Program-made: the position numbers and the translations under genes
Shown here: positions 1,391-15,449 of the stretch, piece by piece
Layout: each line of letters starts with the position of its first letter
Numbering within the stretch: the first letter of the stretch is position 1
Origin: a virus
Virus genome (UHGV): UHGV-1607510
Strand: one strand, 5' to 3'
Length of the DNA: 19,146 nucleotides
Notes under the pieces: model-generated
The model's database searches: none
What the model saw: only the letters and a program-made list of their open reading frames with translations
Told to the model about the DNA's origin: nothing

Positions 1391-1424
1391 TATTTAACGA
1401 GTGCATTTATCCATCGTTGAGTCA

Positions 1425-1453
1425 AATTTACCCAACTTTATTCAAAAAGTCAA
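1425..1453 (-). promoter_or_regulatory. Late promoter pR' (-35 TTGACT, 17-bp spacer, -10 TAAATT) with adjacent Q-utilisation region
   Basis: Minus-strand sequence TTGACTTTTTGAATAAAGTTGGGTAAATTTGACTCAACGATGG closely matches the lambda pR'/qut region as recalled. It sits directly downstream of the Q stop. Confidence 0.65.
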
Positions 1454-1495
1454 TATCATGCCGTTAATATGTTGCCATCCGTGGCAATCATGCTG

Positions 1496-2119
1496 CTAAC
1501 GTGTGACCGCGCTCAAAATGTTGTCTGCGATTGACTCTTCCTTGTGGCATTGCACCACCAGAGCGTCATACAGCGGCTTAACAGTGCGTGACCAGGTGGG
1601 TTGGGTAAGGTTTGGGATTAGCATCGTTACAGCGCGATATGCGGAGCTTGCTGGCATTCTTGAATAGCCGACACCTTTGCATCTTCCGCACTCTTTCTCA
1701 ACAACGCTCCCCCACTGCTCTGTTTTTGCTATATCAACTGCCCGACCTGTTCCGTGGCAATCTCTGCATCTTGCGCCCGGCGTCGCGGCACTACGGCAAT
1801 AATCCGCATAAGCGAATGTTGCGAGCACTTGCAGTACCTTTGCCTTAGTATTTCCTTCAAGCTTTGCCACACCACGGTATTTCCCCGATACCTTGTGTGC
1901 AAATTGCATCAGATAGTTGATAGCCTTTTGTTTGTCGTTCTGGCTGAGTTCGTGCTTACCACAGAATGCAGCCATTCCGAATCCGGCTTGTGATTGCGCC
2001 ATCCCCATAGCAGCCATCACATCAGTACCGGAAAGAGAGTCAGAAGCCGTAGCCCGTGGTGAGTCGCTCATCATCGGGCTTTTTGGCGAATGAAATTTAG
2101 CTACGCTTTCGAGTCTCAT
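1496..2119 (-). CDS. Q: Late-gene antiterminator Q (lambda Q type)
   Basis: 207-aa [32 protein letters not shown]...[20 protein letters not shown]...[11 protein letters not shown] with a Zn-binding CxxC pair. Near-identical to lambda Q by recall. Confidence 0.95.
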
Positions 2120-2781
2120 GCGCCTTCTCCCTGTACCTGAATCAATGTGAGGTTTCCGCAGAACACTGCGCCGGTATCGATATACATCTGGTTGGCAAAC
2201 TTGAGTGGTTTCACTGCTGGCGTATGACCAAAGATGAACGTGTCCGCGCCTTTAATTTCTTTCACGATCCCGTCTTGTGAGTTGCTGATTCGTTCGCGGT
2301 TCCAGATTACCTGCTGATGATCAACTGGCTTTCCAAACTCGTATTCGTCACAAGGATAATCGGCGTGGCAGATGACATATTTTTTATCTTTGCTCACCAG
2401 TTCGATGATTAACGGAAGTTCTTCTGCTTTATAGGCAAGAGCTTTAGCCAGAATCTCTTTGTCGTAATCGAGATTAAAGAACCAGCCACCGCCATTAAGC
2501 AGCCAGTGATTAACGTTTCCACGCTCTGATAAGCCATCAATCATCATTTTCTCATGGTTTCCACGTACAGCTCTGAACCAGGGGAATGTGATTAATTCCA
2601 GGCATTCAACGTTCTCTGTACCGCGATCGACCAAATCGCCAACCGAGATAAGCAGGTCTTTTTTGGTGTCGAATCCTATCGCCTCCAGTTTTTTCATCAG
2701 GTTCGTGTAGCATCCGTGCAGATCGCCAACTACCCAAATATTTCGGTATTTGCTGCCATCAATTTTTTCGTAATAGCGCAT
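2116..2781 (-). CDS. ninI: Ser/Thr protein phosphatase NinI (lambda PPase)
   Basis: ORF contains [25 protein letters not shown]...GDLVDRG...GNHE (calcineurin-like metallophosphatase motifs GDxHG, GDxxDRG, GNHE). The track ORF begins 25 codons upstream, but the lambda-type start MRYYEK at 2781 is preferred. Stop overlaps the Q start (ATGA). Confidence 0.9.
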
Positions 2782-2965
2782 CTCTTTCACTCCATCCGCG
2801 ATGAACCATGAGAACGTCGTTGACGATGGCGTGCATTTTCCCGTCTTTATCATCAACGTATTTTCTGACCGTACCGCGACTACATTTCAGTCTGCGTGCT
2901 ACTTCTGTCTGGTTTCCGTATGCTTCAACGAGCATGTCTGGAATGGTTTTTACTGAGAACGTCAT
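2759..2965 (-). CDS. ninH: NinH (small Fis-like DNA-binding protein)
   Basis: 68-aa [40 protein letters not shown]... with an HTH, matching lambda NinH by recall. Overlaps ninI as in lambda. Confidence 0.85.
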
Positions 2966-3573
2966 GCGGCCTCACTTCTGCTATTTCGCAGGTCTTTGAG
3001 TTTCTGCTGATACTCCGCCTTGATGGCCCTGCACTCTTCGATAGTCCAGCGATGGCGGTTATGGTTTGATTCGATTTCGTCTACTGCTTCCTGCCCGATG
3101 CGGTTAATCAGTTCGACGCGATACGGAACGAGATTTCCGCTTTTGTGCTGGTTGCACACCACGCATTGCTTGTGAATATTGCGTTCATCAAATCGGAGTT
3201 GAGGTGCCGCAGCAGTTGTCCGGTAATGCCCGGCATCCCACTGAGCAGACGTGAGCGTTCCGCACGAGATACATGGTAAGTCGCGGTCTCTTTCTCTGAT
3301 GAAGGCGTTTACGGCTTGTTGGGCTTGTTTAATCCAGTAACTGCGGGGCTTTAAGGCGAGTTTTCGAATCTTCAGTTTATCTTTCTGTTTCTGTTCCTCT
3401 CGTCGTCGTTTCTTCTCTGCTGCTTTTTCCGCTTTTTTGCGTTCTTTGCTTCGTCGTTCGAGTGCTATCTTGGTTCCACACTCTGGAGAGCACCACCACT
3501 GATTAGCGAATGCAGGGTGAAACCATTCCCGGCATTCATCGTTTTTACATCGTCTTCGCGCTGGTTTAGCCAT
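2962..3573 (-). CDS. ninG: NinG / Rap recombination-promoting structure-specific endonuclease
   Basis: 203-aa [44 protein letters not shown]... with a Cys-rich N-terminus and basic linker. Matches lambda NinG by recall. Confidence 0.9.
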
Positions 3574-3742
3574 CGTCTTCTTCCTCGTACATTGAGCTAT
3601 TCGGATCGCTCATCAGTTCTGCGCAGCAGTGCTCACACACATGAACTTCCAGCACATGCAGCTTCTGACCGCAGTTAGCGCACGTTAAAGCCCGCTCGAC
3701 GCTTTCTTTCTGGTATTGAATGGATTGGGATGGGCTAAGCAT
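3566..3742 (-). CDS. ninF: NinF (58 aa, Cys-rich)
   Basis: Not in the supplied track because it is under 60 aa. Hand translation from ATG 3742..3740: [58 protein letters not shown]. Its stop overlaps the ninG start and its start overlaps the upstream gene's stop. Confidence 0.75.
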
Positions 3743-7812: not shown

Positions 7813-7890
7813 AATTACTCCTGTGGATTGATCCAGTCTTTCTACATCAGGCCTCAAAACTGTTGCAGCAGTCTTGAGGCTTTTCTTTTG
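7810..7890 (+). ncRNA. oop-like antisense RNA overlapping the cII 3' end (promoter tentative)
   Basis: Plus-strand intrinsic terminator GCCTCAA-(16-nt loop with internal CTG/CAG pairing)-TTGAGGC followed by TTTTCTTTTG at 7851-7889, antisense to the last codons of cII. A candidate -10 CATAAT at 7810-7815 would give a 65-75 nt transcript, comparable to the 77-nt lambda OOP RNA. Confidence 0.5.
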
Positions 7891-8125
7891 TCAGCACCAT
7901 GGCTACTTTCTTTGCCAGCTCCGCTAATTCCTCGTCTTCAACACCCCACTCCAGCACAGCCAGAAGCATGGCCATCTTTGGGATAAAACTGTCTTTCCAT
8001 CGCGAAATTTGCGATTCATTAATCCCTAACGCGTCGGCAACCTTTCGCTGACCACGTACAGCAATTCGATTTAGGATGTTGCTTGTAATTGCATTCGCTT
8101 TCTTGCGAGTACTTGTAAGTTGCAT
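7847..8125 (-). CDS. cII: CII-like transcriptional activator
   Basis: 92-aa product MQLTSTRKKANAITSNILNRIAVRGQRKVADALGINESQISRWKDSFIPKMAMLLAVLEWGVEDEELAELAKKVA... from ATG 8125 (AAGGAAAT RBS upstream). The central region matches lambda CII (KSQISRWKRDWIPKFSMLLAVLEWGV). The track ORF is longer and runs through nutR. Confidence 0.8.
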   Translation of the reverse strand: MQLTSTRKKANAITSNILNRIAVRGQRKVADALGINESQISRWKDSFIPKMAMLLAVLEWGVEDEELAELAKKVAMVLTKEKPQDCCNSFEA

Positions 8126-8135
8126 ATGTAAGTAT
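8103..8135 (+). promoter_or_regulatory. pRE-like CII-activated promoter
   Basis: Plus-strand TTGCgagtacTTGT (TTGC-N6-TTGT) lies in cII codons 3-8, followed 12 nt later by TAAGTAT. The spacing and -10 match lambda pRE (TTGCGTTTGTTTGC then CATATGTAAGTAT) as recalled. Confidence 0.5.
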
Positions 8136-8184
8136 TTCCTTAACAAATAAGAAGTTATGCGCATCAAATTATGCGCGTTGTATT

Positions 8185-8227
8185 CCCGCATTTCGGCGGG
8201 AATGAGGACCATGACTGTTAAAGAGCG
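8185..8227 (-). promoter_or_regulatory. nutR site (boxA CGCTCTTTAACA plus boxB hairpin CCCGC-CGAAAT-GCGGG)
   Basis: Minus-strand sequence between the cro stop and cII start: CGCTCTTTAACA-gtcatggtcctcatt-CCCGCCGAAATGCGGG. The boxB is identical to the one upstream of N. Confidence 0.65.
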
Positions 8228-8233
8228 GTGTTA

Positions 8234-8428
8234 CTATTTGTTTTTCTTGTTGCTTGGGAAAGGACGAACTTCCTCTCCAATCACACTGCCATCAGGCTTT
8301 ACCGTAACCATGATGTTACGGCCTGCCAGAATGGCCTTGCTGATAGCGCACTGGATTACACCAAAGTCACTGGCTGCTTTAGCCTGTCCATGGATTTTGG
8401 CGTAATCGGCAAGTGTCATTCGAATCAT
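8234..8428 (-). CDS. cro: Cro repressor (lambda-Cro fold)
   Basis: 64-aa product [64 protein letters not shown] from ATG 8428 (GGAGAG with a 5-nt spacer). Aligns with lambda Cro ([59 protein letters not shown]). Confidence 0.8.
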
Positions 8429-8457
8429 ATGCACTCTCCGTTATTAACCATGAACAA

Positions 8458-8499
8458 AGAATACTACAGGTATTCAAAGCAATCAATACTCAGGGTATT
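8458..8499 (-). promoter_or_regulatory. PR promoter with operators OR1 and OR2
   Basis: Minus-strand -35 TTGATT (8486..8481), 17-bp spacer, -10 TATTCT (8463..8458). OR1 AATACTACAGGTATT at 8460-8474 overlaps the -10; OR2 AATACTCAGGGTATT at 8485-8499 overlaps the -35. Centre-to-centre spacing is 25 bp. Confidence 0.6.
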
Positions 8500-8534
8500 T
8501 TTAGTTTAAGTACCTTAGCTATTAGAATTAAGCT
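8500..8534 (+). promoter_or_regulatory. PRM-like promoter for a leaderless cI mRNA, with possible OR3
   Basis: -10-like TAGAAT at 8523-8528, 7 nt before the cI ATG, with no Shine-Dalgarno. A degenerate operator-like AGTACCTTAGCTATT lies at 8509-8523. This is the lambda PRM arrangement. Confidence 0.45.
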
Positions 8535-9251
8535 ATGGAAAATAAAAAATCACTGACGACAGAACAGCTGGAAGACGCTAAGCGGCTTAAGGCTTTGTAT
8601 GAGTCAAAAAAGAAAGAATTGGGAATAACCCAATACTCAATCGCTGATGAACTGGGTATCACCCAAGGAGCGGTAGGGCATTATCTTAATGGCAGAAATG
8701 CGCTAAACGTTGAGGTTGCATCTGGTTTTGCACGATTGTTGCAAGTCTCAATTGCTGATTTTAGCCAGTCAATTGCTGCCAAGGTTGCAGAACAGGCAGA
8801 AAGCCTTAAGAGCGATGCCAACGTAAGGTATGCAGGGGAATACAGAGCAGGAAAGAGGTATCCGGTGTTAAGCAGTATCCAGGCTGGCTCGTGGTGTGAA
8901 GCATGCGAACCATACACCATTAAAGACATAGATGTTTGGCTTGAGTCTGACGCGCATATTCAAGGTAATGCGTTCTGGCTTAAAGTGGAAGGTGATTCAA
9001 TGACGGCACCGGTTGGGTTAAGCATTCCAGAGGGAACATTCGTTCTTTTCGATACCGGAAGGGAGGCAATCAACGGCAGCTTGGTCATAGCAAAACTTTC
9101 TGACTCTAACGAAGCAACATTCAAGAAGCTGATAATCGACGGCGGAAATAAATACCTCAAGGGACTTAATCCTGCATGGCCTCTCGTGCCAATCAATGGA
9201 AACTGCAAGATTATAGGCGTTGCAATTGAGACAAAACTCAGACTGGTTTGA
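8535..9251 (+). CDS. cI: CI prophage repressor (HTH plus S24 LexA-like autopeptidase domain)
   Basis: 238-aa ORF with HTH (ITQYSIADELGITQGAVGHYLNG), Ala-Gly cleavage site (SIQAGSW), catalytic Ser (VEGDSMTAPVG) and Lys (ATFKKLI). Collinear with lambda CI (TQEQLEDARRLKAIYEKKK...). Confidence 0.9.
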   Translation: MENKKSLTTEQLEDAKRLKALYESKKKELGITQYSIADELGITQGAVGHYLNGRNALNVEVASGFARLLQVSIADFSQSIAAKVAEQAESLKSDANVRYAGEYRAGKRYPVLSSIQAGSWCEACEPYTIKDIDVWLESDAHIQGNAFWLKVEGDSMTAPVGLSIPEGTFVLFDTGREAINGSLVIAKLSDSNEATFKKLIIDGGNKYLKGLNPAWPLVPINGNCKIIGVAIETKLRLV

Positions 9252-9268
9252 TCACGCAAGGGGCGAAT

Positions 9269-9637
9269 ATGGTTGGAACCGCTATAGCAAGCTTTTTAGG
9301 GATGTTGGCAATATCGACAATTTACTGCTTAGCGCATGCTTTTATTGCGAAATCTCTATCAGAAAAAATAAGCCAGGCTTGGGCGCATAGATCAGCTCGT
9401 TTCATGATTCTGGTGATCATAGCAATACAAGGGATATCTGCATTTATCCTCTATGGATCAAGCTTATACCTATTGTATCAAGGCGCGACATTTACGCCTT
9501 ACACCAGTGATTACGGAACCCTATACGATGGTAGTGAAGACATCTCTATGGCTTGGATCGTCTTTGGTTTATCTATGGCCGTGTCTGTTGTAGCAGACAT
9601 CATTAAGGTAATTCTCGTCTTAACCTTCGCTGACTAA
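9269..9637 (+). CDS. Small integral membrane protein (122 aa, 3 predicted TM helices) downstream of cI
   Basis: ATG 9269 with AAGGGG RBS (5-nt spacer), 17 nt after the cI stop. Hydrophobic segments VGTAIASFLGMLAISTIYCLAHAFIA, FMILVIIAIQGISAFILYGSSLYLLY and AWIVFGLSMAVSVVADIIKVILVLTF. The track start (TTG at 9248) overlaps the cI stop and is less likely. Confidence 0.6.
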   Translation: MVGTAIASFLGMLAISTIYCLAHAFIAKSLSEKISQAWAHRSARFMILVIIAIQGISAFILYGSSLYLLYQGATFTPYTSDYGTLYDGSEDISMAWIVFGLSMAVSVVADIIKVILVLTFAD

Positions 9638-9769
9638 CCCATAATCCCGGAAGCAATAGCTATCGGGATCCACTTCACATATCCCGCATAAAAAGCACTG
9701 AACAAGCAGACACCGAAAAAAATAAATATCCTTTGTATTCATTTGTTTATCATTATTTCATCAAAAATA

Positions 9770-9811
9770 AATACCTTGGGTATTTACACAATAAAATACC
9801 TACAGTATTCT
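9770..9811 (+). promoter_or_regulatory. PL promoter with operators OL2 and OL1
   Basis: -35 TTTACA (9783-9788), 17-bp spacer, -10 TATTCT (9806-9811). OL2 AATACCTTGGGTATT at 9770-9784 and OL1 AATACCTACAGTATT at 9795-9809, spaced 25 bp as at OR. A degenerate third site AATATCCTTTGTATT lies at 9725-9739. Confidence 0.6.
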
Positions 9812-9857
9812 TTAGCCATCAGCAGGACGCTGGTAGCCAAACGGAACAGATTGGCAG

Positions 9858-9897
9858 GCTCTTTAACATTGATGGGATTGTCCCGCCGAAATGCGGG
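9858..9897 (+). promoter_or_regulatory. nutL site (boxA GCTCTTTAACA plus boxB CCCGCCGAAATGCGGG)
   Basis: boxA at 9858-9868 matches the rrn/lambdoid boxA consensus. boxB at 9882-9897 is identical to the nutR boxB. Located between PL and the N-like gene. Confidence 0.7.
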
Positions 9898-10005
9898 AAC
9901 CAAAGAGTAGTTGGCTTTGGGGTGACGTGAAGTGCAGATGCACGACGGCAACCGGAAGATAAGCACCCGGCGCGTCACCGCCAAAGTCAATCATCGGAGG
10001 TCAAC

Positions 10006-10278
10006 ATGACAGTAGTCATTACATATCTGGCTGACGATAACGCCAGAAATCGCCGCAGAGCACGCAGACAGGCTCAACGTGAACAGGCAATGCAAGAACA
10101 GCGACTGGCGCGAAAGATTGCGCTAAAGCTCTCTGGTTGCGTCAGAGCAGATAAAGCAGCATCACTCGGAAGCCTTCGCTGCAAGAAGGCAGATGAATGC
10201 AGTGGAAGTATTTGCCTGCCAAACGTAGCCATTTACGCGGCAGGCTACCGGAAATCAAAACAACTGACAGCCAGGTAA
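10006..10278 (+). CDS. N-like transcription antiterminator (P22 gene 24 type)
   Basis: 90-aa ORF with GGAGG RBS and an N-terminal arginine-rich motif (NARNRRRARRQAQREQ). First gene after PL-nutL. The C-terminus VAIYAAGYRKSKQLTAR resembles P22 gp24 as recalled. Confidence 0.75.
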   Translation: MTVVITYLADDNARNRRRARRQAQREQAMQEQRLARKIALKLSGCVRADKAASLGSLRCKKADECSGSICLPNVAIYAAGYRKSKQLTAR

Positions 10279-10281
10279 GTG

Positions 10282-10506
10282 ATGAATCAGACATACATTC
10301 CATCATGCTTGAGAAATCTGCCAAAGCAGAAAGCAAAGCCCCGCAAGCAAGCCATAAAGGACGCTAAGGCAGAGGTTATTGATCAAGCAATACAATTGCT
10401 CAGGGAGGAGTTAAGAAGTGGCAAGCTCGAAGGAATGATGATGCCCTATCAGCGCGGATATCTATCGGCGATTAGTAAGTTGGAAGTATTGAAGAGTGAA
10501 TTATGA
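10282..10506 (+). CDS. Hypothetical small helical, Lys-rich protein (74 aa)
   Basis: ATG 10282 directly after the N stop. Product MNQTYIPSCLRNLPKQKAKPRKQAIKDAKAEVIDQAIQLLREELRSGKLEGMMMPYQRGYLSAISKLEVLKSEL. Stop overlaps the next start (ATGA). Confidence 0.5.
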   Translation: MNQTYIPSCLRNLPKQKAKPRKQAIKDAKAEVIDQAIQLLREELRSGKLEGMMMPYQRGYLSAISKLEVLKSEL

Positions 10507-11039
10507 ACTATCTGGAATTTCCGGATGGTTCATTGTTTTGGCAGCAAACCACTTATTTGAGGCGAGATATGAGAAAATCATGGAACGTACCTTTTCCTGA
10601 ATCAGAAACTGAACATGATGGAATGCCTGTTTTCTGGAGATTCCAGGCGACAGTTGAAGAAGATGGAATCAAAATATTCGCACTTCAATATATAGCTTTT
10701 CATCAGACAGAGCATTATGCATGGTTGGTTCCTGCGCATTGGATTGTTGATTTTAAACCAGCACCAAATCAGTGGTTACGGGAATGGAAACAAAGGATAA
10801 ATAGATATGCAATTAAGAAAGTAGCAAAAAATGCAGAAAGATCTTTTGCATTCCCAACGAAGAAACTTGCCATTGAGAGCTTATTGCGCCGGAAGAAATA
10901 CCATTTAATAAGAATCAAACAAGATTTGGCTGTTGTATCAACTCTTGTTGATGGGATGAAGAATATTGATACATCAACACCAGATATTGAATATAATTTT
11001 GGACACAACCAAGAAACAGAAAATTGGGTATTCTACTAG
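10503..11039 (+). CDS. Hypothetical protein (178 aa), AT-rich gene
   Basis: ORF MNYLEFPDGSLFWQQTTYLRRDMRKSWNVPFPESETEHDGMPVFWRFQATVEEDGIKIFALQYIAFHQTEHYAWLVPAHW... The 3' half is visibly more AT-rich than the neighbouring phage genes. Followed by an intrinsic terminator. Confidence 0.6.
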   Translation: MNYLEFPDGSLFWQQTTYLRRDMRKSWNVPFPESETEHDGMPVFWRFQATVEEDGIKIFALQYIAFHQTEHYAWLVPAHWIVDFKPAPNQWLREWKQRINRYAIKKVAKNAERSFAFPTKKLAIESLLRRKKYHLIRIKQDLAVVSTLVDGMKNIDTSTPDIEYNFGHNQETENWVFY

Positions 11040-11570: not shown

Positions 11571-11665
11571 GCACTGTGTATTCATTCCAACGAGTGAATA
11601 CACGGAGCAATGTCGCTCGTAACTAAACAGGAGCCGACTTGTTCTGATTATTGGAAATCTTCTTT

Positions 11666-11693
11666 GCCCTCCAATGTGAGGGCAGTTTTTTTT
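11666..11693 (+). terminator. Intrinsic terminator immediately upstream of the coiled-coil gene
   Basis: GCCCTC-CAATGT-GAGGGC followed by AGTTTTTTTT. It ends 13 nt before the GGAGG RBS of the next gene. Confidence 0.6.
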
Positions 11694-11705
11694 GACGGAG
11701 GATAT

Positions 11706-12674
11706 ATGAGTGAAGTAACAGATTTAGTTGTTATTGAAAAAGCAAATGCAATGACTGTATTTCAGTCTGCCGACCAGATTGAAGAAATTCTCCAAAAGGT
11801 TGAACGTGAAGTTATGTCCTTTGTGCCTGATATCACAACGGCAAAGGGCAGAAAGGAGATCGCTTCTCTGGCGTATAAAGTTGCGCAGACGAAAACATAT
11901 CTCGATGGTCTTGGCAAAGACCTTGTTGCTGAACTGAAGGAAATTCCAAAGCTAATTGATGCCAACCGCAAGACAGTGCGTGATCGCCTTGATGAGCTGA
12001 AAGCCAAGGCACGCCAGCCTCTTACTGATTATGAGGAAGAACAGGCGCGGATTAAAGCCGAAGAAGAAGCTAAGGCAGCAGCTGAAGCTCTCGCAAAGCA
12101 AATTGAGTCTGACCATGAAATAGCGATTTTGATGGATCGAGAATTTGACCGCCAAAGAGAAGAGACAAGACTCAAAGCGGAGCAGGAAAAGCGAGAGCAT
12201 GAAGAACGCTTAAAAAGAGAAGCTGAAGAGAAAGCCAGAGCTGAAGCCGAAGCAAAGGCAAAAGCCGAAATTGAAGCAGCAGCAAGGCGAGAAGCAGAAG
12301 CTAAGGCAGCAGCGGAACGTGCAGAGCGTGAACGCATTGAAGCCGAGCAACGAGCACAGCGCGAAGCAAAAGAGGCAGCAGAACGAGCTGAAAGAGAAAA
12401 GCAGGCGGCAATTGAAGCAGAACGCAGAAAAGCACAGGAGGAGGCTGAACGAATCCGTCGCGAGGCTGAAGCAAAAGAGCAAGCCAGAATAGCAGAAGAA
12501 AAAAGAATCAAGGACGAAGAAGAGCGTAGAGCAAAGGATAAAGCTCACCGGAAAGAAGTAAATAACAAAATACTTGCTGACCTTATCAAGGTTGGCGCAT
12601 CAGAAGATGTTGCTAAAAATATCATAACAGCCATCGTAAAAGGCGAAGTATTCGCAACAAAAATAACCTACTAA
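11706..12674 (+). CDS. Coiled-coil protein with a long Glu/Ala/Lys/Arg-rich low-complexity repeat region (322 aa)
   Basis: ATG 11706 with GGAGG RBS. The track start at 11610 reads through the upstream terminator and is rejected. N-terminal globular part (MSEVTDLVVIEKANAMTVFQSADQIEEILQKVEREV...), then about 150 aa of EAEAKAKAE/AERAERE-type repeats, then a C-terminal tail. Confidence 0.65.
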   Translation: MSEVTDLVVIEKANAMTVFQSADQIEEILQKVEREVMSFVPDITTAKGRKEIASLAYKVAQTKTYLDGLGKDLVAELKEIPKLIDANRKTVRDRLDELKAKARQPLTDYEEEQARIKAEEEAKAAAEALAKQIESDHEIAILMDREFDRQREETRLKAEQEKREHEERLKREAEEKARAEAEAKAKAEIEAAARREAEAKAAAERAERERIEAEQRAQREAKEAAERAEREKQAAIEAERRKAQEEAERIRREAEAKEQARIAEEKRIKDEEERRAKDKAHRKEVNNKILADLIKVGASEDVAKNIITAIVKGEVFATKITY

Positions 12675-13221: not shown

Positions 13222-13929
13222 ATGGATTTGAATAAATTCGATGAGCCATTCAGCCCTGAAGATATCGAATGGCGAATACAGCAAAGCGGTAAAACACGCG
13301 ATGGAAAGGTGTGGGCTATGGTGCTGGCTTATGTCACGAACAGGGCAATCATGAAACGCCTGGACGATGTTTGCGGCAAAGCAGGATGGCGCAATGAATA
13401 CCGCGATATTCCCAACAACGGAGGCGTTGAATGCGGCATATCAATCAGGATTGATTCCGAATGGGTAACCAAATGGGATGCTGCTGAAAACACGCAGGTA
13501 GAAGCCGTAAAAGGTGGTCGTTCCGGTGCAATGAAGCGCGCTGCCGTTCAGTGGGGAATCGGTCGGTATCTGTATAACATTGAGGAAGGTTTCGCACAAA
13601 CATCTCTCGATAAAAAGCAGGGATGGCACAGGGCAAAACTCAAGGATGGAACAGGATTTTACTGGCTCCCTCCATCGCTGCCGGGATGGGCAATCCCAGC
13701 ATCAGATAACAAACCATCACCAGAAAATACCAACCAGAAATCTCCATCGGTTGACTGCGAGCAAATCCTGAAAGACTTCAGCGATTATGCGTCAACAGAA
13801 ACTGACAAGAAAAAACTCATCGAGCGTTATCAGCGTGACTGGCAATTAATGGCTGGCAACGAGGAGGCGCAGGCTAAATGCGTTCAGGTAATGAACATCA
13901 GAGTTAACGAACTAAAACAGGCGGCATAA
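13222..13929 (+). CDS. Single-strand annealing protein (Rad52/Erf-type recombinase)
   Basis: 235-aa ORF with GAGGTG RBS. The core VEAVKGGRSGAMKRAAVQWGIGRYLYN resembles the conserved Rad52/Sak/Erf annealing-domain signature. Immediately followed by SSB. C-terminal tail ...TETDKKKLIERYQRDWQLMAGNEEAQAKCVQVMNIRVNELKQAA. Confidence 0.7.
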   Translation: MDLNKFDEPFSPEDIEWRIQQSGKTRDGKVWAMVLAYVTNRAIMKRLDDVCGKAGWRNEYRDIPNNGGVECGISIRIDSEWVTKWDAAENTQVEAVKGGRSGAMKRAAVQWGIGRYLYNIEEGFAQTSLDKKQGWHRAKLKDGTGFYWLPPSLPGWAIPASDNKPSPENTNQKSPSVDCEQILKDFSDYASTETDKKKLIERYQRDWQLMAGNEEAQAKCVQVMNIRVNELKQAA

Positions 13930-14403
13930 ATGGCAAGCAGAGGCGTAAATAAGGTGATCATTATTGGTCGCCTTGGGCATGATCCAGAAATCAGATATTC
14001 ACCATCAGGAACGGCATTTGCAAACCTTACCGTTGCTACGTCAGAACAATGGCGTGATAAGAAAACTGGAGAGCAAAAGGAGCAGACGGAGTGGCACCGC
14101 GTGGTAATGAGCGGGAAACTGGCAGAAATTGCCAGCGAATATCTGCGAAAAGGCTCTGAGGTTTATCTTGAAGGCAAATTGCGGACAAGAAAATGGCAGG
14201 ATCAAAGCGGACAGGATCGGTTCACTACCGAAGTCATCGTGGGCGTTGGTGGAACCATGCAAATGCTTGGTGGCAAGCAAGGAGGCAATGAACAGTCTTC
14301 ACCTCAGCGAAATAATGGTCAGCAACAAAGACAGCAACCTCAGCAGCAGGGGAATCACAGCGAACCACCTATGAACTTCGACGATTCGGATATTCCGTTC
14401 TAG
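13930..14403 (+). CDS. ssb: Single-stranded DNA-binding protein (SSB)
   Basis: 157-aa ORF with an OB-fold N-terminus ([44 protein letters not shown]), a Gly/Gln-rich linker and the acidic C-terminal tip DDSDIPF. Confidence 0.9.
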
Positions 14404-14412
14404 GAGCTGAAT

Positions 14413-14892
14413 ATGAAAATCTGCTCAAGATGCCATCAACAGAAGGAAGAAAGGGACTTTCAAATCAGAAGAGCATCCAGAGATGGATTAACTGCCGCTT
14501 GCCGGGCTTGCCTGGCTGAATACGACAAAGAGCGCGCGGGATTGCCACATCGAGTATCAGCAAGGAGAGAATATCAATCATCGGAACGCGGCAGAGAACG
14601 GTGTAACGCAGCCAAAAAGCGGTTCATTCAGAGCAACCCATGGAAAAGAAAAGCCCACATCATCGTGGGTAATTTTTTGCGCGACGGTAAGCTAATCCGA
14701 CCACCACAATGTGAGTGCTGCGGATCAGAATGCAAACCACAGGCGCACCACTGCGACTACAGCAAACCAACCGATGTGATGTGGCTCTGCAAGTCATGTC
14801 ATGTCGAGTGGCACAAACATAACAAACCTATCTACCCAGACGAGGAGCCAGTAACTCTCCCCTTCCCTCGTCACGCTATTCACGCAATTTAA
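14413..14892 (+). CDS. Cys-rich zinc-finger protein with an HNH-like C-terminal motif
   Basis: 159-aa ORF with CxxC pairs (CSRCH, CRAC, CECCGSEC, CKSCH) and QAHHCDYSKPTDVMWLCKSCHVEWHKHN, resembling the HNH nuclease beta-beta-alpha-metal motif. Confidence 0.55.
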   Translation: MKICSRCHQQKEERDFQIRRASRDGLTAACRACLAEYDKERAGLPHRVSARREYQSSERGRERCNAAKKRFIQSNPWKRKAHIIVGNFLRDGKLIRPPQCECCGSECKPQAHHCDYSKPTDVMWLCKSCHVEWHKHNKPIYPDEEPVTLPFPRHAIHAI

Positions 14893-14900
14893 GGACTTAC

Positions 14901-15449
14901 ATGAATCACTTGATGGTTGACCTTGAAACAATGGGCAACGGGCCATACGCGCCAGTTATTTCTATTGGGGCGGTATTCTTTGACCCGAATACCGGAGAAA
15001 CAGGAGAAGAGTTCTCGGTAAATATCTCGCTTGAATCATCAATGCGATATCGAGCGCGTCCTGACGCTTCAACGATTTTATGGTGGCTGGAACAGAGTGA
15101 AGAAGCCAGGAAATCGCTAACCAGCAACACTCAGGAGCTTTCAACGGCTCTTTCATGGTTATCTGAATTCATCATAAAGAACGCTAACCACAAATTCGTT
15201 CAGGTTTGGGGGAATGGAGCATCATTTGACTGCGTTATTCTCCGCAACAGTTATTCGCTGACAGGGCAGCCAGTTCCGTGGCAGTGGTGGAATGACCGCG
15301 ACGTAAGAACAATCGTCGAACTTGGGAAGGCAATAGGATTCGACCCTAAGCGAGATATGCCATTCAAAGGAACTCGCCACAACGCTCTTGATGATGCCAT
15401 TCACCAAGCCAAATACGTTTCAGCGATCTGGAAAAAGTTAGCTAAATAA
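14901..15449 (+). CDS. DEDDh-family 3'-5' exonuclease (DnaQ-like)
   Basis: 182-aa ORF with Exo I (MVDLETMG), Exo II (WGNGASFDCVIL) and Exo III (HNALDDAIHQAKY) motifs. Confidence 0.75.
   Translation: MNHLMVDLETMGNGPYAPVISIGAVFFDPNTGETGEEFSVNISLESSMRYRARPDASTILWWLEQSEEARKSLTSNTQELSTALSWLSEFIIKNANHKFVQVWGNGASFDCVILRNSYSLTGQPVPWQWWNDRDVRTIVELGKAIGFDPKRDMPFKGTRHNALDDAIHQAKYVSAIWKKLAK

Follow-up and report, generated by a model that had tools for sequence, protein, structure and literature searches.

An HK620-type immunity region with AATAC-N5-GTATT operators in a mosaic lambdoid phage genome

Closest described systems and the genes of the region

That lambdoid phages are mosaics is well known from textbooks. 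A repressor gene and a Cro gene that diverge, together with tripartite palindromic operators, are found in phage lambda and likewise in phages 434 and P22 (c2), whose operator sequences differ from those reported here and whose Cro proteins are all-alpha and thus not of the lambda-Cro fold. Coliphage HK620, reportedly described by Clark, Inwood, Cloutier and Dhillon in 2001, has had its operators marked in its database record (AF335538.1) since that year, with pR, pL, OR1-3 and OL1-3 as annotated features. In the DNA analysed here, a stretch of 19,146 bp from a virus genome (the window), positions 8200-10000 are 98.7% identical to HK620 over 1.8 kb, and the OR stretch at 8420-8560 is 100% identical. 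OL1, OL2 and a further site at -45 of OL2 are identical as well, and the annotated OR1-3 and OL1-2 coincide with the sites described below. With near-identical CI and Cro and identical OR and OL operator sequences, the region is an HK620-type immunity region, already known and annotated. The gene order cro / OR / cI / hkaS / OL / N is shared with HK620, and the two are set apart by a handful of point differences and an indel of 1 bp between hkaS and OL, as well as in the neighbouring modules, HK620 not being among the 25 best whole-window matches.

The cro gene lies on the minus strand at 8234-8428 and encodes 64 amino acids from its ATG (the mechanically called reading frame is two codons longer and starts at the GTG at 8434); the HK620 record has a 195-nt cro at the same place. 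Its product belongs to the lambda-type Cro family (Pfam PF09048, E 3.6e-26) and shows no match to P22_Cro. It is a full-length homologue of lambda Cro with 63% identity, matches PDB 1cop (E 4.7e-19), and is 100% identical over 66 aa to the Cro of HK620 (tblastn, locus L001 of the comparison, AF335538.1). The cI repressor gene is located on the plus strand at 8535-9251 and encodes 238 amino acids, with a helix-turn-helix N-terminal domain (Pfam HTH_3) and an S24 autopeptidase C-terminal domain (Peptidase_S24). It is 99.6% identical to HK620 CI over 238 aa (tblastn) and 43% identical to lambda CI across its full length, and lambda CI is by far its best match among solved structures (PDB 3bdn, E 2.9e-52). 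The Ala-Gly cleavage site and the Ser/Lys dyad are shared with lambda, as Ala117-Gly118, Ser155 and Lys197 align with the lambda cleavage site and catalytic residues, and the segments QAG, GDSMTAP and FKKL are common to both proteins in the alignment. The HK620 record carries the remark 'similar to 434 and L cI', but the match to lambda in this analysis is the stronger one. On account of this remark a 434- or P22-like immunity was considered as the closest, and it was rejected because lambda CI is the best solved-structure match and Cro falls into the lambda family, not into P22_Cro.

Between cI and OL, where lambda has rexAB, the plus strand carries a gene at 9269-9637 that corresponds to the annotated hkaS of HK620; its hydrophobic product of 122 aa belongs to PHROG 6534 (E 3.9e-78), a family in the category of function unknown, and has no match in Pfam. 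The antiterminator gene N, on the plus strand at 10006-10278 (Pfam N_peptide, E 1.1e-15), is annotated as such in HK620 and is the first gene of the PL operon, with nutL upstream in the HK620 annotation.

Operators, promoters and a probable lambda-style switch

The original prediction had quoted four 15-bp palindromes in this region, grouped in two pairs with a spacing of 25 bp, and had proposed a motif scan of the window as a check. In the pattern scan AATACNNNNNGTATT (AATAC-N5-GTATT) is found exactly four times in 19,146 bp, at 8460-8474, 8485-8499, 9770-9784 and 9795-9809, with letters identical to those quoted and with 25 bp start-to-start in both the OR and the OL pair. By chance 0.02 sites are expected, and none of 200 dinucleotide-preserving shuffles gave four. 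OR1 (8460-8474, or 8459-8475 as a 17-mer; AATACTACAGGTATT) corresponds to OR1 of HK620; it overlaps the -10 of PR and is centred at about -16 of that promoter. OR2 (8485-8499; AATACTCAGGGTATT), also annotated in HK620, is centred at about -41 of PR and about -43 of the predicted start of PRM, and abuts or overlaps the -35 of PR. On the left side, OL2 (9770-9784; AATACCTTGGGTATT) overlaps the -35 and OL1 (9795-9809; AATACCTACAGTATT) the -10 of PL, and both are annotated in HK620. Apart from these four exact sites, none of which is assigned to a strand, two more strandless sites are present that had been missed in the original set: the degenerate OR3 (8509-8523; AGTACCTTAGCTATT), which has two arm mismatches, equals OR3 of HK620 and is centred at -19 of the predicted PRM start, and a left-side site with a single mismatch, discussed in the next section. 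Beside the AATAC-N5-GTATT family, no further repeated palindromes were found in OR or OL.

The promoter PR, as it reads on the minus strand at 8486-8458, consists of a -35 TTGATT (8486-8481), a 17-nt spacer and a -10 TATTCT (8463-8458), with a probable start near 8451. It is missing from the promoter scan because it matches only 8 of 12 consensus positions and the threshold was 9/12, but it is contained in the HK620 pR feature, whose place in the window is 8451-8486. PL is located on the plus strand at 9783-9811 (TTTACA at 9783-9788, 17-nt spacer, TATTCT at 9806-9811), matches 9/12 positions in the promoter scan and lies inside the pL feature of the HK620 record. The -10 TATTCT that both promoters had been said to have in common therefore stands with PR as read off the sequence, inside the HK620 feature, and the overlap of each site pair with the -10 and -35 elements stands as well. 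PR and PL face outward and flank cro (minus strand), cI (plus strand) and one small gene. For cI itself, a putative PRM is located on the plus strand at 8500-8528, with a weak -35-like TTTAGT (8500-8505) that matches 3 of 6 consensus positions, a 17-nt spacer and a -10 TAGAAT (8523-8528). The annotation of the HK620 record has no PRM feature; every relative has a TAnnAT hexamer after OR3 (TAGAAT, TACAAT, TACTAT or TAATAT), and the distances of OR2 and OR3 to cI fit the annotated positions in lambda. The PRM start would be at or beside the ATG of cI (8535), which suggests a leaderless cI mRNA like that of lambda.

The arrangement is thus that of a lambda-type switch: cI and cro are divergent with a tripartite operator over PR and PRM, the repressor combines a helix-turn-helix with a self-cleaving S24 domain and is accompanied by a lambda-family Cro, and a second operator, OL, covers PL upstream of N. 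The tripartite OR and its spacing from PR and from the start of cI agree with lambda within 1-2 bp (OR2 at -43 here versus -42 in lambda, OR3 at -19 in both), and the 17-bp sites are centred on a base pair in both phages, whereas the spacing of OR1-OR2 and of OL1-OL2 is 25 bp here and 24 bp in lambda. That this immunity region of HK620 type works as a lambda-style bistable switch I consider highly probable (about 0.9), and the four palindromes are almost certainly the CI and Cro operators of such a switch, an assignment that draws on annotation by analogy and on the comparative evidence of the present analysis. A full-text literature search, with the original HK620 publication outside its reach, returned neither binding or footprinting experiments nor reporter assays for an HK620-type CI or Cro.

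In such a switch, pseudo-palindromes of 17 bp (nAATAC-N5-GTATTn) would be the recognition sites of CI dimers as well as of Cro dimers, the latter of the lambda-Cro fold. In the lysogenic state, CI on OR1 and OR2 and on OL1 and OL2, possibly bound cooperatively, would cover the -35 and -10 hexamers of both PR and PL and keep the early operons off, that is, cro-cII-O-P leftward and N onwards rightward in the window. At OR2 the repressor would be in a position to activate cI transcription from the weak, leaderless-type PRM, and OR3 would be placed for negative autoregulation of cI and for the shut-off of PRM by Cro. In lambda, Cro prefers OR3, a rule that may not carry over to this phage because OR3 is the most degenerate of its sites. 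Prophage induction would then proceed through RecA-stimulated self-cleavage at Ala117-Gly118 by the Ser155/Lys197 dyad.

Diverged relatives and the third left operator

At least 120 loci with the paired pattern came out of a scan of IMG/VR. As these were chosen by their operator pattern, the independent observations are the linkage to CI and Cro, the OR sites of those loci that had been selected by their OL, and the constancy of the recognition helices. Most of the loci have a CI homologue (down to 46% identity where both cI and cro are present) and a Cro homologue (44-86%) beside the sites. In the 37 distinct diverged OR regions that lie outside the basis of selection, an exact OR1 is present in all 37, an OR2 with at most one mismatch is located 23-26 bp from OR1 in all 37, and a third OR site, with a conserved right arm GGTATT, is found in 29 of them at 22-25 bp from OR2. 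When 41 distinct diverged OR regions are compared, the arms are constant, while spacers and centres vary. The recognition helices of the relatives are constant too, with CI (T/S)QG(A/G)VGHY(L/M)NGR and Cro Q(C/T)AISK. The Serratia phage vB_SspS_OS31 (MT843276.1), with a CI 71% identical, has the same operator family. This phage and more than 40 distinct IMG/VR variants share with the present region the AATAC-N5-GTATT sites, the 25 bp between OR1 and OR2, an OR3 with a degenerate left arm, the site at -45 of OL2 and both recognition helices; they differ in CI (46-88% identical) and Cro (44-86%), in the spacers and in the 5 bp at the centre of the sites (e.g. AATACCGCTAGTATT), and in the third OL site, which is at -21, -30 or -45, or absent. 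Phage mEp213 served as a negative control: its CI is 51% identical but has another N-terminal domain and adjoins sites of the ACAC..GTGT type, not AATAC. As the likeness of its CI is confined to the C-terminal domain and its operators are of the ACAC/GTGT type, mEp213 was rejected as a relative of the same family.

The left-side site missed in the original set, at 9725-9739 (AATATCCTTTGTATT), begins 45 bp upstream of OL2 and overlaps the tIMM terminator feature of HK620. I regard it as a candidate OL3; the third left site is then probably 45 bp from OL2, compared with 20 bp in lambda. A minus-strand reading frame close by (9620-9742, 40 aa) was weighed as a small gene whose conservation might account for the conserved ...TTCAT beside this site, and was rejected, as the reverse complements of the relatives run into early stops.

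The overlap with tIMM can also be taken at face value: the palindrome at 9725-9739 would be the stem of an intrinsic terminator that ends the cI-hkaS transcript, and the true OL3 would lie in a lambda-like position at about 9747-9763 (centre at about -63 of PL). This reading deserves serious weight, even if I put it below even odds. In its favour, the annotation of HK620 has tIMM covering the palindrome and OL3 some 22 bp upstream of OL2, the palindrome is followed by a T-rich run (CATTTGTTTAT), and the stretch between hkaS and PL must hold a terminator of some kind. However, the annotated OL3 (9747-9763 in the window), with 6 of 10 arm positions mismatched, is no better than random sequence, while 9725-9739 keeps the half-site AATAY, which goes beyond the mere complementarity of a stem. 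A site at -44/-45 is kept in all 15 HK620-type and in 15 of 50 diverged OL variants, with CI down to 46-51% identity, and two of the loci (L007 and L027) have exact operators there. The 5-bp A/T stem is moreover absent from the minimum-free-energy fold of the RNA, and a terminator scan gave no call at the palindrome. The comparative data thus favour 9725-9739, and not the annotated OL3, as the best third left site, and OL3 and tIMM are probably mis-annotated in the reference record, which is flagged here. The roles of operator and terminator at this site are not mutually exclusive.

Taken together, the statement that a third left operator lies within tIMM, 45 bp upstream of OL2, and that AATAC-N5-GTATT marks a large clade of lambda-related switches with invariant helices, is tentative, and I would not put it at even odds. 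If the third OL site is indeed at 9725-9739, the geometry of OL would be unlike that of lambda, and operator and terminator could be combined in one element that couples the occupancy by CI to read-through of cI-hkaS transcripts into PL. The clade would span phages of E. coli and Serratia and many metagenomic phages; given the invariance of its helices, any heteroimmunity within it would therefore be set by the central 5 bp, by the N-terminal arm, or by cooperativity and spacing.

Specificity and mosaic context

The operators had originally been described as distinct from those of lambda. Sites of the lambda type (TATCACCGC, 17 bp) are present in neither OR nor OL, and the best 17-mer in the whole window has six mismatches to the symmetric lambda consensus; OR and OL being devoid of lambda-type palindromic operators, a lambda immunity specificity is ruled out. 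This part of the description holds, but it understates the kinship, as CI and Cro are full-length lambda homologues and the half-sites, TATCAC in lambda and nAATAC here, have A2, A5 and C6 in common and differ at positions 3-4 (TC in lambda, AT here). In the recognition helices, Cro differs from lambda at H2 (Ser to Cys) and H5 (Asn to Ser), and CI has Gly in place of Ser at the position of lambda Ser45. I propose that the specificity shift at half-site positions 3-4 goes together with these residue changes, with the contacts to A2, A5 and C6 kept. The 'evolutionary code' of Cro, as far as it is quoted in PMC6649833 from Hall, Lefevre and Cordes (2005), assigns A+2 to Gln at H1, A+5 to Ala at H3 and C+6 to Lys at H6. 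The helix QCAISK, with Q at H1, A at H3 and K at H6, thus predicts A2, A5 and C6, and by the code in this quoted form nAATAC agrees at all three positions in the 17-bp frame n1 A2 A3 T4 A5 C6, which is assumed by analogy with the 17-mers of lambda and HK620. The switch appears to be closely related to that of lambda, from which it is separated by two positions in the half-site and by two or three residues in the helices; with so few differences, it would offer a handy natural counterpart to lambda CI and Cro for specificity swaps.

Alternatively, the palindromes could be incidental in AT-rich promoter DNA, or be targets of another host or phage factor, with CI and Cro binding elsewhere. The sites are rich in A and T and share bases with promoter hexamers, and the literature search found no direct binding data; still, I consider this very improbable, given the excess of exact sites over chance, the invariant arms amid variable spacers and centres, the strict linkage to CI and Cro homologues with invariant helices, the agreement with the Cro code as quoted, and the absence of a second repeated palindrome in OR or OL. 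For operators that, according to the literature search, have so far been predicted by analogy, the OR sites of all 37 independent relatives, the helices and the quoted code offer comparative support for their assignment to CI and Cro.

The least probable alternative, that the immunity specificity is new and undescribed for any phage, is virtually excluded: the full-text literature search found no match to the operator sequences in print, but CI, Cro and all the operators agree with those of HK620 as given above, the operators are already annotated in AF335538.1, and the cassette is also present in HK630, HK140, mEpX2, HF4s, HZ41, phi296/phi367, some Stx phages and 146 of 5426 complete E. coli genomes. 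The novelty implied by the original prediction is thus lost to a named phage with an identical operator set. Because the HK620 record already marks the same sites, the finding is correct but ordinary, and as originally worded it is of little import, the cassette being common.

The window as a whole is a lambdoid mosaic, as had been predicted, with near-lambda nin, Q and lysis genes beside non-lambda operators; the claimed near-identity of S, R, Q and the nin genes to lambda is borne out by 93% identity in S/R/Rz and 97% in Q-ninI-ninF. The description as a lambda-like chassis applies to these approximately 3.7 kb, but not to replication, which relies on O and a DnaB-type helicase, nor to recombination, with Erf and SSB. 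Over the window as a whole, P22-like phages (HZ41, HF4s, HK544 and Sf6) match best, and any one record covers at most 59% of the window among phages, or at most 59-67% among phages and E. coli genomes together.

Operators, promoters and switch geometry

Exactly four matches to AATACNNNNNGTATT are present in the window, at 8460, 8485, 9770 and 9795, with the sequences given for them in the original prediction; in dinucleotide-preserving shuffles 0.02 matches are expected on average, and four were never reached. Also the predicted start-to-start spacing of 25 bp is found within both pairs (8460/8485 and 9770/9795). The left pair (OR1, 8460-8474; OR2, 8485-8499) overlaps PR on the minus strand, read from the sequence as TTGATT (8486-8481), a 17-nt spacer and TATTCT (8463-8458), while the right pair (OL2, 9770-9784; OL1, 9795-9809) overlaps PL, a sigma-70-type promoter on the plus strand with TTTACA (9783-9788), a 17-nt spacer and TATTCT (9806-9811). 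As predicted, the two promoters are divergent, face outwards and have the -10 hexamer in common. Two sites carrying mismatches had been overlooked: a mismatch-tolerant scan detected OR3 at 8509-8523 (AGTACCTTAGCTATT), 24 bp past OR2 and immediately upstream of cI, and a site at 9725-9739 (AATATCCTTTGTATT), 45 bp upstream of OL2.

The sites lie among cII (within 7847-8212, minus strand), cro (8234-8428, minus strand; 64 aa, lambda-Cro family PF09048, E 3.6e-26), PR/OR/PRM, cI (8535-9251, plus strand; 238 aa, with HTH_3 and Peptidase_S24 domains), an open reading frame resembling hkaS, OL/PL and the N antiterminator gene (10006-10278, plus strand), in that order, which is the layout of lambda on the opposite strand. 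The best solved-structure matches are full-length lambda repressor for CI (3bdn, E 2.9e-52) and lambda Cro for Cro (1cop, E 4.7e-19), with full-length pairwise identities to lambda of 43% and 63%, respectively. Ala117-Gly118 (SIQAGSW), Ser155 (GDSMTAP) and Lys197 (FKKL) of CI align with the cleavage site and catalytic residues of lambda CI.

The lambda cI mRNA is leaderless, with the PRM start at the cI ATG, and by analogy I set the PRM start at the cI ATG at 8535. The centres of OR2 and OR3 are then at -43 and -19, compared to -42 and -19 in the lambda record, and those of OR1/OR2 and OL1/OL2 are at about -16/-41 of PR and PL, respectively, in agreement with lambda. A -10-like TAGAAT (8523-8528) follows OR3 and has a TAnnAT equivalent in every relative examined. 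Judged from this geometry of sites and hexamers, the putative PRM would be activated from OR2 and repressed from OR3.

The hkaS-like frame (9269-9637, plus strand; 122 aa, hydrophobic) occupies the location of rexAB in lambda, between cI and OL. It matches PHROG 6534 (function unknown), and a Pfam search gave no match. In lysogens its transcription is presumably shared with cI, which makes it a candidate for a role in exclusion or lysogenic conversion. Directly 3' of its stop codon lies a stable hairpin without a U-run (AUCCCGG...UCGGGAU, 9644-9669, plus strand), the sole strong structure between hkaS and OL in the RNA fold, which might act in the stability or processing of the RNA.

Identity with HK620 and the wider operator family

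Several phages match window 8200-10000 from end to end at 98.7-99.1% identity, among them HF4s, mEpX2, HZ41, phi296/phi367, HK620 and HK630; HK140 covers 99% of this stretch, and Stx2c phages cover about 94%. The HK620 GenBank record AF335538.1 (Clark et al. 2001, cited in PMC2629481) annotates cI, hkaS, cro, pR, pL, OR1, OR2, OR3, OL1, OL2, OL3, tIMM, nutL and nutR. When its coordinates are mapped, the 17-mers OR1, OR2, OL2 and OL1 are the predicted 15-mers plus one flanking base per side, and its OR3 is the 8509-8523 site. The OR stretch (141 bp) is 100% identical to that of HK620 and the OL sites are identical too, as is Cro (100%), with CI at 99.6%. Among 5426 complete E. coli genomes, 146 carry the cassette, with identities of 95-99.5%. 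The region is the HK620 immunity region, which is common in E. coli and has been annotated for more than two decades. According to the original prediction, an identical operator set on record for a named phage would take away its novelty; HK620 is such a phage, and the novelty is nil. The functional reading of the four sites as CI/Cro operators, with an immunity other than that of lambda, is well supported.

A 100% match to window 8200-8368 (cro/nutR region) was observed in MT713136.1 (Aeromonas phage AP1, a 254-kb jumbo-phage record) at 253491-253659, about 830 bp from the record end, which looks like contamination or chimeric assembly of that record.

When IMG/VR was scanned for pairs of AATAC-N5-GTATT sites with a 25-bp spacing, at least 120 loci were obtained, about 35 of them with the HK620 cassette. 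The others listed mostly have a CI homologue, and of those most have a Cro homologue too, adjoining the sites (Cro 44-86% identical; CI 46-88% where both genes are present); operator arms and spacing are kept, while centres and spacers vary. As these loci were selected by the pattern itself, only independent features were used, namely 37 distinct diverged OR regions in which the selecting match was at OL. OR1 is exact in all 37, OR2 lies 23-26 bp from OR1 and has no more than one mismatch in 37/37, and an OR3 with up to two mismatches is present in 29. All these relatives keep the CI helix (T/S)QG(A/G)VGHY(L/M)NGR and the Cro helix Q(C/T)AISK, whereas whole-protein identity falls to 46% (CI) and 44% (Cro). 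Serratia phage OS31 is a named member of the family (CI 71% identical). As a negative control, the CI of mEp213 (51% identical overall) has the C-terminal domain in common and differs in the N-terminal domain; its gene is flanked by ACAC...GTGT-type palindromes, and AATAC sites are absent. The operator family is broad, and its recognition helices are invariant.

In a large subgroup of the IMG/VR relatives the operators, AATACCGCTAGTATT / AATACTAGCGGTATT, are near-perfect. With ACCGC..GCGGT, their centre looks similar to the interior of lambda operators, which may hint at subgroup specificity carried by the central bases.

Proposed basis of the specificity difference

The Cro recognition helix is Q-C-A-I-S-K here and Q-S-A-I-N-K in lambda. 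Placed in the 17-bp frame that lambda and the HK620 record use, the half-site reads n1-A2-A3-T4-A5-C6, and all three coded positions match the Cro 'evolutionary code' (H1 Gln/A+2, H3 Ala/A+5, H6 Lys/C+6; PMC6649833). The lambda half-site T-A-T-C-A-C shares A2, A5 and C6 and differs at positions 3 and 4, and between the two Cro proteins H2 changes from Ser to Cys and H5 from Asn to Ser; in lambda Cro, Ser H2 touches base pairs 4-5 and the Asn base pair 3 (PMC6649833). The CI helix is TQGAVGHYLNGRN compared to GQSGVGALFNGIN in lambda, with the Gln and Asn residues retained. In lambda co-crystal structures the CI Ser contacts operator position 4, and this residue is Gly in the window. These helix changes would coherently account for the operator difference at positions 3-4, in line with the predicted specificity unlike that of lambda.

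Putative third left operator and genome mosaic

The OL3 of the HK620 record maps to 9747-9763 (TTATCATTATTTCATCA) and is mismatched at 6 of 10 arm positions, whereas the 9725-9739 site has one mismatch and is found at -44/-45 of OL2 in 15/15 HK620-type OL variants. Among 50 diverged variants, 15 have the -44/-45 site, with the exact operator sequence in two (L007 and L027); a third OL site is at -21 in 10 and at -30 in 11, and is absent in 14. The record places the tIMM terminator over the 9725-9739 palindrome (window 9719-9763, HK620 locus 3020-3063, spans both features). However, its hairpin is not formed in the RNA minimum-free-energy fold of 9636-9765, and a terminator scan of the window did not call it. 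Because of the single mismatch, the conserved position and the absent hairpin, I favour 9725-9739 as the putative OL3 with moderate confidence; OL3 and tIMM are then probably mis-annotated in the reference record, though the site possibly serves as both operator and terminator.

Just 5' of this site, an A-run with TAAAT (AAAAAATAAAT, 9712-9724), and just past it TTCAT (9738-9742), are conserved in most relatives, even very diverged ones. Neither an operator nor an open reading frame fits as the cause, the reverse-strand frame meeting stop codons in relatives.

Only the nin-Q-lysis block fits the proposed 'lambda-like chassis': identity to lambda is 93% in 34-1233 (Rz/R/S), 97% in 1396-3708 (Q to ninF) and 94.6% in a ninD/E piece, and all other alignments are short, none longer than 142 bp. 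An O-like initiator and a helicase of the DnaB type are encoded by the replication genes, Erf and SSB make up the recombination module, and the best whole-window matches are the P22-like phages HZ41, HF4s, HK544, IME10 and Sf6. Given the restricted lambda identity, the differing modules and these P22-like matches, the window is an ordinary lambdoid mosaic; in whole-window searches no phage match covers more than 59% of it and no E. coli genome more than 67%.

The lambda operator half-site 9-mer TATCACCGC has three exact copies, at 419 (+), 3824 (+) and 6550 (-), each inside a coding region (a random 9-mer would be expected about 0.15 times; with at most one mismatch there are 10 vs. 3.5 expected). 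As no copy in the window forms part of a palindromic 17-mer, the excess is probably codon or composition chance. Two plus-strand frames in the early left operon match only profiles of unknown function, 178 aa at 10503-11039 (phrog_1636) and 354 aa at 11610-12674 (phrog_1376/21365). Within 13222-15449 (plus strand), Erf and SSB are followed by a 159-aa endonuclease-like frame and by one of 182 aa, which matches only the C-terminal portion (180-362 of 436) of far longer exonuclease profiles; it could be either a truncated exonuclease or a domain-only version.
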